From: Escherichia coli
GTDB taxonomy: Bacteria > Pseudomonadota > Gammaproteobacteria > Enterobacterales > Enterobacteriaceae
Length of the DNA stretch: 64,000 nt
Assembly (NCBI RefSeq): GCF_036507355.1
Contig: NZ_AP027877.1
Direction: 5' to 3' (one strand)
The position numbers and the translations under genes were made by a program. Each line of letters begins with the position of its first letter. Positions within the stretch are counted from its first letter, which is position 1. A model generated the notes under the pieces. That model ran no database searches. It was not told the origin of the DNA and saw nothing but the letters and a program-made list of their open reading frames with translations. Below are positions 32,704 to 52,766 of the stretch, piece after piece.

Positions 32704-32770
32704 GTTTCACCGTCATAAACCAGATAAACTAAACGACAAGTGTATCTGGTTTAAGTGAAGAGAGAAATTA

Positions 32771-33535: not shown

Positions 33536-33892
33536 GAGTCAGACAACGAAGTGAACATCAGGATGATGACACTTCTGAAGGACACACCAGGATGGTGTTT
33601 CAGGGAAAGGCTTCTGGATGAAGCGAAGAGGATGACGCAGGACGCGTTAAAGGACACCTCCAGGATGGAGAATGAGAACCGGTCAGGATGATTCGGTGGG
33701 TCAGGAAGGCCAGGGACACTTCAGGATGAAGTATCACATCGGGGTGGTGTGAGCAGGAAGCAATAGTTCAGGATGAACGATTGGCCGCAAGGCCAGAGGA
33801 AAAGTTGTCAAGGATGAGCAGGGAGCAACAAATGTAGCTGGAATGCTGCGAAACGAACCGGGAGCACTGTGAATACAGTGCTCCCTTTTTTT
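33536..33892 (+). ncRNA. csrB: CsrB, CsrA-sequestering small RNA
   Basis: About 360 nt with roughly 18 CAGGAUG/AGGA repeats, ending in the intrinsic terminator GGAGCACUGUGAAUACAGUGCUCCCUUUUUUU; 5' end approximate. Confidence 0.9.
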
Positions 33893-33937
33893 ATTCCTGC
33901 TATCCTTCGCGGCAGTTTTTCTTATTGAGGTTGCTTT

Positions 33938-35516: not shown

Positions 35517-35569
35517 TATGTTCAGCGAGCGGTAAATGTCGTTTTAGCGGTGCTGAATCGAATCTTTTT

Positions 35570-35624
35570 AGGCAAATGCCAGTAAAAACTGCTTCATAGC
35601 GCGGATTTTTACTGGCGTTTGCCT
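35570..35624. promoter_or_regulatory. Long imperfect inverted repeat upstream of gudP
   Basis: 19-nt arms AGGCAAATGCCAGTAAAAA / TTTTTACTGGCGTTTGCCT with one mismatch and a 17-nt loop; no adjacent T-tract. Confidence 0.35.
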
Positions 35625-35950
35625 GGAGTCAAGCGATCCATTTCATACTCTTCTTTATTTCTTCGTTTTAACCCTTCCTTTCTTGTTCTTGTTTTCATTT
35701 CCGTGAAGTGGATTCCACCGTCCAGGGCTAATGCCAAAATCGGGCCTCATTGAACGCATTAATGTTGTGTTGTTGCACGGTGAGCCGCTATGGCGCGCTT
35801 TTTATACTGCTATTGCCAGATATAAACACGCGCCGTATTCGGCGAACGACCTATAAAAACGGCAAAAAACACCCTACGTCACCTCTGATTTCCTGGCGAT
35901 GTCGCAGTCCAGAGTGAGCGTGGCTAACGCGAATTTTCAGGAGTGCAACA

Positions 35951-37303
35951 ATGAGTTCTTTAAGTCAGGCTGCGAGCCGTGTGGAAAAACGCACGAATGC
36001 TCGTTACTGGATAGTGGTGATGTTGTTTATCGTCACATCCTTCAACTACGGCGACCGCGCTACGCTTTCTATTGCCGGTTCGGAAATGGCCAAAGATATC
36101 GGCCTTGATCCCGTGGGAATGGGCTATGTGTTCTCTGCCTTCTCATGGGCTTATGTTATCGGGCAGATCCCTGGTGGTTGGTTGCTGGATCGTTTTGGTT
36201 CAAAACGCGTCTACTTCTGGTCGATCTTTATCTGGTCGATGTTTACCTTGCTGCAAGGCTTCGTCGATATCTTTAGTGGATTCGGCATTATCGTTGCCCT
36301 GTTTACTCTGCGCTTCCTGGTCGGGCTTGCTGAAGCGCCATCTTTCCCCGGCAACAGTCGCATTGTTGCGGCCTGGTTTCCGGCGCAGGAAAGGGGAACG
36401 GCGGTGTCGATTTTTAACTCCGCTCAATACTTCGCAACGGTGATCTTCGCGCCGATTATGGGCTGGCTGACGCATGAAGTGGGCTGGTCACACGTCTTCT
36501 TCTTTATGGGCGGTCTGGGCATTGTCATCAGCTTTATCTGGTTGAAAGTCATCCACGAGCCAAATCAATATCCGGGGGTAAATCAGAAAGAGCTGGAGTA
36601 CATCGCCGCGGGTGGCGCGCTGATCAATATGGATCAGTAAAACACCAAAGTTAAAGTGCCGTTCAGCGTGAAGTGGGGGCAGATCAAACAACTGCTCGGG
36701 TCACGGATGATGATCGGCGTTTATATTGGTCAGTACTGTATCAACGCCCTGACTTACTTTTTCATTACCTGGTTTCCGGTTTATCTGGTGCAGGTGCGTG
36801 GGATGTCGATTCTGAAAGCGGGCTTTGTGGCTTCCGTTCCGGCGGTTTGCGGTTTTATCGGCGGTGTGCTGGGTGGGATTATTTCCGACTGGCTGATGCG
36901 CCGCACGGGATCGCTGAACATTGCGCGTAAAACACCGATCGTAATGGGCATGTTGCTGTCGATGGTGATGGTGTTCTGCAACTACGTCAACGTTGAGTGG
37001 ATGATCATCGGCTTTATGGCGCTGGCCTTCTTCGGTAAGGGCATTGGGGCGCTGGGTTGGGCAGTAATGGCAGATACCGCACCAAAAGAGATCAGCGGTC
37101 TTTCCGGTGGCCTGTTCAACATGTTCGGTAACATTTCTGGCATCGTCACGCCAATCGCAATTGGTTATATCGTTGGCACGACTGGCTCCTTTAATGGGGC
37201 GCTGATTTATGTTGGTGTTCATGCCTTAATCGCGGTACTGAGCTACCTGGTGCTGGTGGGCGATATCAAGCGTATCGAGCTGAAACCTGTCGCGGGGCAA
37301 TAA
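35951..37303 (+). pseudogene. gudP: Glucarate/galactarate MFS transporter GudP interrupted by an in-frame TAA at 36638-36640
   Basis: 229-aa ORF (35951-36640) and 215-aa ORF (36656-37303) are in the same frame and together form one 12-TM MFS protein; sequence reads ...INMDQ-TAA-NTKVKVPFSVKWGQ... Confidence 0.85.
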
Positions 37304-51863: not shown

Positions 51864-52766
51864 TTACCATCTTCCTGACGCGCCGCCACCGCCGGATGAA
51901 CCGCCGCCACCGCTGAAATTGTCATTGTCGAAAGAGGATGAAGAGGAAGAAGACGATGACGAATGCCAGGAGGCCGAGTTGCTTCTTTCGTAGCGTGACG
52001 GTCGGTTTGCACTACGCATTGAATCACGCACCTTTCTGCCGAAAGGTGTGAAAGCGATAGCTACGACCAGGAATGGAGTGGCGAAACATAATAATGTGGC
52101 AAGAATTCCCCAGCTCCCGCTATATCCAGCGATGGGAAGTACAAAGGCCAGTATTATGGCAGCAAAGCAAATCACTCCCAGCGTTTTGATATATCCTCTG
52201 GCAGAAATAAACGTCAGTACTATCGCCCAGACTAACAGAGCCCACCAACCGCTAAAGGGTAAAGGATGATCGGGCGATGTATTATTGACTAAATCATTTC
52301 CTGATAGTCGGGTTTCAATATCACCAATACCTTGTTGCAAGCCGACAGCAAGGTCGCCCTTTTTAAACGCTGGAATAATACTGTTGCGTATAATTTGCCC
52401 GGACTGCGCATCCGTCAGAATACCCTCAAGTCCGTAGCCAATTTCAATATGTACTGTATGATCTTGCTAGGCAACTACCAGTAAAATACCGTCATCAAGA
52501 TTCTTATGACCGGGCTGCCAACGCTCGAATACCCGCGTTGCGTACTGCTCGATGGTTTCGTCGCCTGTTGTATCAACCACTAACACGACCAACTGTGCGT
52601 GTTTTTTTTGTGTCAGGGCTTTAATCTGGTTGGTCAGGGTGTTTACTTCGCTGTTTGTTAATGTGCCGGTTAAGTCATTCACATACTTGGGTGATTCAGG
52701 TACTGGAATTTGTGTGGCAAACACAGATGAACAGAAGAAAGCCGTAAGGAAGATAAAATTTCGCAT
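51864..52766 (-). pseudogene. ygcG: TPM-domain (YgcG-like) protein interrupted by an in-frame TAG at 52467-52469
   Basis: N-terminal ORF (signal peptide MRNFIFLTAFFCSSVFA plus start of TPM domain) and C-terminal ORF (TM segments plus Gly/Ser-rich tail) are in the same frame, separated only by the amber codon; sequence reads ...LLVVA-TAG-QDHTVHIEIGYGLEG... Confidence 0.75.

Follow-up and report, generated by a model that had tools for sequence, protein, structure and literature searches.

A long RNA hairpin between yqcA and gudP of Escherichia coli, with terminator-shaped relatives, as a probable 3'-end structure of the yqcC-truC-yqcA transcript

In the sib/tI retroregulator of phage lambda, the U-tract of a terminator is embedded in a longer dyad, and terminated and read-through RNAs fold differently. 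The gud, gar, and cdaR operons of E. coli are reported to be under the control of CdaR, which includes autoregulation of cdaR. A predicted SdaR/CdaR motif, shown in the source only as an image, is reported to be conserved upstream of its targets in E. coli (PMC3223726). Rho-terminated transcripts of the same species end at stable stem-loops that lack U-tails and are followed by sequence with more C than G, and such stem-loops protect the transcripts from 3' exonucleases (Dar and Sorek 2018, PMC6061677).

Here we describe an inverted repeat in a stretch of 64,000 nt from an E. coli genome (contig NZ_AP027877.1; hereafter, the window). The gene order around it, all on the plus strand, is yqcC, truC, yqcA, a spacer of 434 nt, and gudP from 35951, with CsrB at 33536–33895 upstream of yqcC (Rfam). 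The repeat ends 327 nt ahead of the gudP start codon and ~180 nt ahead of the likely -10 of gudP, a gene that is co-directional with yqcA and separately regulated. A terminator is needed between the constitutive yqcA operon and the inducible gud operon, and the repeat is the sole strong hairpin of the E. coli spacer, with no second candidate. With a probability of roughly 0.6, we propose that the repeat acts as RNA, i.e. as a hairpin that sets the 3' end of the yqcC-truC-yqcA transcript, protects it, and shields gudPXD. The structure of the hairpin, its strand bias, its conservation, and its anatomy in orthologues are the observations on which this proposal draws. The hairpin is most likely a hitherto unannotated instance of an ordinary, already known kind of element. 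The features of the locus are listed in Table 1.

Table 1. Features of the yqcA-gudP region, in coordinates of the window
Feature	Start	End	Strand	Remarks
yqcA, flavodoxin, last gene of yqcC-truC-yqcA	35067	35516	+	stop codon 54 nt before the repeat
Conserved block CTGAATCG	35553	35560	+	shortly 5' of the hairpin; other genera have CTGAATCG[A/T]GTTAGC, E. coli a degenerate form
Full RNA hairpin, yqcA-sense	35566	35628	+	27 pairs including U.G wobbles, one bulge, 8-nt loop
Left arm AGGCAAATGCCAGTAAAAA	35570	35588	+	holds the palindrome GGCAAATGCC (35571–35580) and an A5 run (35584–35588)
Spacer/apical region CTGCTTCATAGCGCGGA	35589	35605	+	4-bp mini-stem CUGC/GCGG, -2.8 kcal/mol, bulged A
Right arm TTTTTACTGGCGTTTGCCT	35606	35624	+	opens with a T5 run (35606–35610); GTTTGCCT in place of outgroup GTTTTCAT
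C-rich, G-poor pyrimidine tract, candidate Rho-loading (rut) region	35627	35704	+	20 C and 7 G in 78 nt
Conserved blocks GTCAAGCGA (35628–35636) and TTTCATACTC (35641–35650)	35628	35650	+	immediately 3' of the hairpin
Invariant block TTTTCATTTCCGTGAAG	35692	35708	+	end fixed 84–85 nt from the hairpin base in 30/30 loci
Second motif copy GGCTAATGCC	35726	35735	+	lies 155 bp 3' of the copy in the left arm; nearly all genera keep it ahead of gudP
Likely gudP -10, TATACT	35803	35808	+	read from sequence; putative for E. coli

The initial annotation had described a near-perfect inverted repeat with 19-bp arms and a 17-nt loop, and a repeat search recovers exactly these arms (95% complementary, one mismatch); the flanking genes had also been named correctly, with the flavodoxin gene yqcA upstream and gudP downstream. 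No other inverted repeat in the window has 19-nt arms, at most one mismatch, and a loop of 3–40 nt, and repeats of equal quality are found in 0 of 30 first-order Markov simulations of the window. The arm sequence matches itself on both strands and a single further site with three mismatches, at 52469 (0.02 chance matches expected). The element is present in 5425 of 5426 complete E. coli genomes, with at least 95% identity in 5423 and 90–95% in the other 2, in exactly 1 place per genome and with no annotation on it. Since it is single-copy, with no family copies, we rejected the idea that it is a dispersed repeat or REP element. None of these 5425 genomes is identical to the present sequence over 35555–35640. 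T35569, beside the left arm, seems unique to the present sequence, the base being C in K-12 and in O145 RM9872; the C35569 allele of K-12 extends the arms to 20 nt (CAGGC.../...GCCTG) and folds at -40.3 kcal/mol (z = -8.6). The only other inverted repeat of the window with 15-nt arms, (C)ATAAACCAGATAAAC ... TATCTGGTTTAAG at 32716–32758, lies in the divergent queF-syd spacer and may be an operator or a terminator.

The two strands of the repeat differ in their capacity to fold. Specifically, the plus strand folds at -38.2 kcal/mol (z = -8.6), which 0 of 200 shuffles equal, while the minus strand reaches -28.4 kcal/mol (z = -5.1), i.e. ~10 kcal/mol less. U.G and U-A pairs lengthen the stem of the sense RNA beyond the arms, and all wobble pairs favor the yqcA-sense strand. 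For example, the lone mismatch of the repeat, T35577 opposite G35617, is a G.U pair in plus-strand RNA and an A.C mismatch in minus-strand RNA, and two of the four right-arm columns that vary within Escherichia exchange a G-C pair for a G.U pair on the plus strand. In each of the 6 Escherichia sequences compared, the plus-strand fold is the more stable one, with a margin of 4 to 12 kcal/mol, and the same holds for 20 of 30 loci. Within Escherichia, pairwise difference amounts to 1.8% in the left arm, 8.4% in the right arm, and 39% in the loop, the left arm being the most conserved segment and more so than its pairing partner. One of the roles initially suggested, a stable RNA structure in the yqcA 3' UTR, gains support from the strand bias of the wobbles, from arms that are conserved in Escherichia while the loop diverges, and from orthologous hairpins that have unrelated apical sequences. 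A search of Rfam 15 finds no match in the yqcA-gudP spacer, with E cutoffs of 10 for the window and 1 for five other genera.

For comparison among relatives, 80 loci from as many species were collected with YqcA as the anchor. The yqcA-gudP neighborhood is widely kept among them, and ~30 share a homologous block of ~160 nt around the repeat, including Escherichia, several Citrobacter, Salmonella, Superficieibacter, Kosakonia, Phytobacter, Silvania, Raoultella, and some further lineages. Enterobacter, Lelliottia, Leclercia, and the C. freundii group do not have the block, and many of them carry REP-like palindromes at that place instead. Where the block is present, the apical part of the hairpin differs completely between orthologues yet still folds (CCTTTC/GAAAGG, CCCTTT/AAAGGG, CCACTGG/.AGTGG, CCCCGC/GCGG, CCCTGC/GCAGGG, and CCCTC/GAGGG). 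Conservation of pairing was assessed with per-sequence folds and a count of hand-specified pairs. When the pairing of E. coli is imposed on an alignment of 19 sequences, 75.7% of cells are paired, compared with 34–52% in slid controls, and column pair 19–51 is AU in 7 sequences, CG in 5, UA in 3, and UG in 1. RNAalifold returns no consensus hairpin on sequence-based alignments, because the apical stems are not alignable by sequence. Hairpins of Citrobacter and Superficieibacter give z = -6.2, -5.8, and -3.2, and the long stem is unexceptional in Salmonella, Raoultella, Kosakonia, and Phytobacter (z from -0.3 to -1.7). A flipped form, GGCATTTGCC, found in C. koseri and Raoultella, breaks two pairs.

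Between the yqcA stop and the block, seven loci from other genera have two additional conserved hairpins that are missing from E. coli. One, CCCTCCCCCTAC.GGGAGGG, follows directly on the stop codon of yqcA, and the other is CTTGC-[TGCCAGTA]-GCAAG, the loop of which repeats the TGCCAGTAA of the E. coli left arm.

The same comparison bears on the first proposal for this repeat, namely that a dimeric regulator of gudPXD binds the two 19-nt arms as half-sites. The E. coli repeat does have near-perfect dyad symmetry, and each arm holds a GC-N4-GC core (GGCAAATGCC and GGCGTTTGCC, 43 bp apart). However, pairing of the outermost four positions (AGGC/GCCT) is restricted to Escherichia, column pair 11–59 is paired in 6 of 19 sequences, the distance between arms varies among genera (it is 10 nt shorter in Salmonella), and the right arm is less conserved than the left. 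The GC-N4-GC core of the right arm is itself specific to Escherichia and ranks 692nd against a weight matrix derived from gar and cdaR sites alone. A dyad of 36 bp from center to center around a hypervariable spacer would also be an atypical geometry for an operator. We thus regard a two-arm operator as extremely improbable.

At the same position, Citrobacter, Superficieibacter, and Raoultella carry an A-tract, a GC stem, and a T-tract, i.e. the shape of a two-way intrinsic terminator, and the homologous apical stem of Citrobacter MGH106 is terminator-like on both strands in a simple scan. By our own scoring, most orthologues fall into one of two forms: hairpins of -14 to -24 kcal/mol with UUUUCA on their 3' side, and short GC stems that run into U5–U6. 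The position, past the stop codon on the sense strand and ahead of the next transcription unit, is that of an intrinsic terminator in E. coli as well. There, however, the U5 that follows the stem in orthologues lies only inside the right arm, where it pairs with the A5 run of the left arm; the hairpin upstream of it is reduced to 4 bp, and the full stem is followed by GGAGUCAAGC, which is not U-rich. A scan with an intrinsic-terminator consensus does not call the E. coli stem. Given the low stability of the hairpin that precedes U5 (Table 1) and the missing U-tail, efficient intrinsic termination is therefore not predicted in E. coli. The initial annotation had noted that there is no flanking U-tract and that the repeat is not a canonical intrinsic terminator; both statements hold for the full stem, which runs into GGAGTCAAGC, but the first overlooks the T5 run within the right arm and the second the descent from a terminator-shaped hairpin. 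Judged by sequence, that T5 run is the remnant of the U-tract of an ancestral terminator.

The changes that led to the E. coli form can be read from the outgroups, in which GGCGTTTTCATAGGG corresponds to GGCGTTTGCCTGGAG of Escherichia. Four substitutions are clustered on the right side, and three of them (T>G, A>C, and A>G) each add a Watson-Crick pair to the stem, the left-arm base having stayed the same, and remove the outer U-run, such that the second U-run, GTTTTCAT, becomes the stem sequence GTTTGCCT. This clustering of pair-creating changes looks like the outcome of a quasi-palindrome template switch. We envisage an ancestral two-way intrinsic terminator, with the A-tract, GC stem-loop, and T-tract that are seen here in many Enterobacteriaceae. 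Its apical GC stem would have decayed to 4 bp in the Escherichia lineage, and the three right-side substitutions would have allowed the flank to pair with the left arm. UUUUU and GUUU, the two U-runs, are consequently both buried in a stem of 23–27 bp.

The same substitutions could have produced a relic, i.e. a terminator "perfected" into a longer palindrome by template switching that persists without a present function. Their clustering, the destruction of the outer U-run, and their direction, with the right side copying the left, would all fit such an origin. We nonetheless consider a relic improbable, as the arms have hardly changed among Escherichia species or among 5425 of 5426 E. coli genomes, against a loop divergence of 39%, and as termination is needed somewhere in a spacer that offers no other candidate. 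The anatomy of the stem, a U-tract within an almost perfect duplex, would also suit retroregulation, in which transcripts stopping at U5 would lack the right arm, and read-through transcripts would form the 27-bp duplex and be cleaved by RNase III, destabilizing yqcA mRNA. The internal terminator on which this depends looks very weak in E. coli, and we find retroregulation very improbable.

Under our preferred reading, a 3' end at the hairpin could arise in E. coli by two routes. In one, weak termination would occur at the internal U5. In the other, which we rate likelier, Rho would load on the C-rich, G-poor tract right after the stem and terminate transcription downstream, after which 3' exonucleases would trim the transcript back to the hairpin. 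The second route is favored because the E. coli anatomy fits the class of Dar and Sorek, with a stable stem that lacks a U-tail and is followed by RNA with more C than G, in which no conserved structure was found. The candidate rut region is in the top 0.26% of all 78-nt segments of the window, both strands considered; 35637–35696 are the most pyrimidine-rich 60 nt of the window, and C exceeds G in the tract after the hairpin in 28 of 30 orthologues. By either route, the hairpin would shield the inducible gudPXD operon from read-through. Termination itself, the part played by Rho, and the protective effect of this hairpin are predictions, and the searchable supplements of published 3'-end, Rho, RIL-seq, and Cra ChIP studies yielded no entry for yqcA or gudP.

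Among the observations that count against the RNA reading, the deepest conservation at the locus resides in sequence blocks that flank the hairpin on either side and in their fixed spacing, a pattern suggestive of constraints at the level of DNA. The conserved blocks are CTGAATCG(A/T)GTTAGC, GGCA-NN-TGCC, (G/A)TTTTCA, GTCAAGCGA, TTTCACACTC, and TTTTCATTTCCGTGAAG. The last is invariant in all 30 aligned loci, GTCAAGCGA and TTTCA(C/T)ACTC are nearly so, and the sequence between them is non-conserved and of fixed length; TTTCA-type motifs are also present in the garP-garD spacer. The 84–85 nt between the hairpin base and the invariant block show no conserved RNA structure. We therefore dropped the notion of a long structured leader or attenuator of gudP, and the fixed length of this variable spacer points to an architecture of the DNA.

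Given this architecture, we weighed whether the left-arm palindrome, GGCAAATGCC, is a distal operator for CdaR, the glucarate/galactarate activator, or for another factor, with the potential to form a hairpin being secondary. Such an operator would act together with the copy 155 bp downstream in a gudP upstream region of fixed geometry. The core of the palindrome, GC-W4-GC, is a candidate motif from the present analysis rather than a published matrix. It occurs three times in the 434-nt spacer (35572, 35727, and 35809; 0.2 expected, P about 0.001), three times in the garP-garD spacer of K-12, and once upstream of cdaR, with two of the gar copies kept across 7 genera. Nearly every locus retains the copy proximal to gudP, which ranks 12th of ~64,000 positions with the gar/cdaR-derived matrix. 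The distance between distal and proximal copies is 154–156 bp (146 bp in Salmonella). In the left arm, the 10-bp palindrome is conserved across genera, and its core is invariant (G, C, A .. G, C) and found in both orientations. On the other hand, the left-arm site ranks 76th of ~64,000 with the same matrix, a rank that taken alone falls short of significance for a 434-nt region, with ~0.5 such sites expected by chance in the spacer, and it lies ~240 bp upstream of the likely gudP start site. Furthermore, the whole module is missing from Enterobacter, Lelliottia, Leclercia, and the C. freundii group, all of which keep gudP and the proximal site. The literature searched for CdaR binding sites, yqcA, and gudP holds no CdaR binding data, no operator sequence, and nothing else of use here. 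We regard a distal operator as the primary role of the element as unlikely, though a good deal less so than the two-arm version. A putative CdaR-type operator in the left arm is also compatible with the RNA role, and its presence there is possible, if tentative. As such, the initial idea of a CdaR-type site fails for the two arms together and survives in a weaker form, as a conserved left-arm GGCAAATGCC with a core that recurs in the gudP, garP/garD, and cdaR promoters.

Footprinting of the K-12 garP-garD spacer (L084 6909–7282) across seven genera reveals two conserved sites 22 bp apart, TGAGCATATGCACAT and TGGGCGCTAATGCACAG, as well as a CRP-like GTGA-N6-TCACA, and TAGGCATTTGCACA is found upstream of cdaR. 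From the gar and cdaR sites taken together, a candidate CdaR operator can be suggested, the 14-bp palindrome TGTGCAWWTGCACA. The best matches of the gar/cdaR matrix in the window fall outside the gud region, at 1612 (TGCGCTTATGCCAA), 56353 (CAGGCATTTGCACA), and 49513 (CAGGCAAATGCCCA).

The conserved block just 5' of the hairpin raises another possibility, in which the hairpin is the terminator of an unannotated sRNA of roughly 80 nt that is present in several enterobacterial genera and is either independent or derived from the yqcA 3' UTR. Through its 5' block, CUGAAUCG(A/U)GUUAGC, this putative sRNA would base-pair with the part of the gudP leader that adjoins the ribosome-binding site. Orthologous hairpins do have U-tails, and the conserved 15 nt adjoin the 5' side of the hairpin, 2–8 nt after an AT-rich hexamer that resembles a -10 element. 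In Citrobacter and Salmonella, the block is complementary to GCTAAC(A/G)CGA..TTCAG|GAG at -50 to -33 of gudP, and the predicted pairing reaches -21 to -25 kcal/mol (z from -1.6 to -3.1). In E. coli, by contrast, the block is degenerate and pairs with the leader no better than shuffles do (z = +1.4), and Raoultella has the leader motif and lacks the block. We also found no convincing -35 element and no plus-strand promoter-like site for an sRNA, no Rfam family in five genera, and sequence downstream of the terminator that is as conserved as that upstream. An sRNA gene is thus quite improbable at this locus; if there were one, it would add an RNA layer to the control of glucarate uptake, and the gene would be decaying in E. 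coli. The gudP leader (35923–35940) carries the reverse complement of CTGAATCG(A/T)GTTAGC (35553–35567), namely GCTAAC(A/G)CGA..TTCAG; this correspondence is strong in Citrobacter and Salmonella, and weak in E. coli. We also take CTGAATCG to resemble a half-site of Cra/FruR, and the literature searched holds no data in support of Cra/FruR at this block.

Several other features of the spacer and of gudP were recorded. GTGAGA-17-TATACT is the only plus-strand promoter-like site in the Citrobacter loci, and it matches the likely gudP -10 of E. coli. The gudP leader contains a hairpin (35880–35917) with compensatory changes across genera (CATTCTGA/TCAGAATG, CATCCTG/CAGGATG, and CATTCGG/CCGGATG; CTCTGA../..CCAGAG in E. 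coli), and a second small hairpin lies immediately ahead of the ribosome-binding site; the leader hairpins have no Rfam match. The gudP gene of the present sequence is interrupted by a premature stop (C>T at 36638, Gln230 to TAA), leaving ORFs at 35951–36640 and 36656–37303; codon 230 is CAA in K-12 and O145 RM9872. Several further private differences are C>T as well, namely those behind H207Y and A282V (36569 and 36795) and T35569 beside the repeat.

Two minus-strand features that overlap the right side of the repeat were set aside. An ORF of 42 aa with a TTG start (35609–35737) is listed as hypothetical protein WP_001296328.1 in the RefSeq genome STEC388, and is probably spurious because it spans the non-conserved pyrimidine-rich spacer. 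A promoter-like TTGACT-16-AAAAAT (35632–35605) was judged coincidental, since its -10 is the A-tract of the terminator and the start would fall inside the loop.

If the proposed 3'-end role is correct, the hairpin marks an unannotated 3' boundary of the yqcC-truC-yqcA operon and serves as an insulator that keeps gudPXD silent when no inducer is present, which would be of help to annotation and would be unsurprising. It would also provide a case in which the U-tract of a terminator has been absorbed into its own stem by clustered pair-creating substitutions, possibly with a shift from intrinsic to Rho-dependent termination. Moreover, conserved blocks at fixed spacing form a mosaic around the hairpin in the gudP upstream region, and this mosaic, together with the recurring GC-W4-GC motif, offers a starting point for finding the CdaR operator.

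How the locus relates to described elements depends on the feature compared. Like REP/BIME elements in 3' UTRs, the repeat is an extragenic palindrome in a 3' UTR, and in Enterobacter and the C. freundii group this spacer holds REP-like GCCGGGTAAGGCG...CCCGGC elements; unlike REP/BIME elements, the yqcA hairpin is single-copy, has no REP sequence, and has an AT-rich middle. With the lambda sib/tI retroregulator it shares a U-tract inside a longer dyad, a likeness that concerns sequence anatomy. As in the protective stem-loops of Dar and Sorek (PMC6061677), a stable stem without a U-tail is followed at once by sequence with more C than G; the inner stem of E. coli is, however, preceded by an A-tract, which is typically absent from that class, and the role of Rho is predicted here. 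Finally, the locus resembles the two-way intrinsic terminators of Enterobacteria in that A5 and T5 runs flank a stem-loop after the last gene of an operon, and in that U-runs follow the GC-rich apical stems of orthologues on one strand or on both; it departs from them in E. coli, where the GC stem is down to 4 bp and both U-runs are paired within the stem of 23–27 bp.
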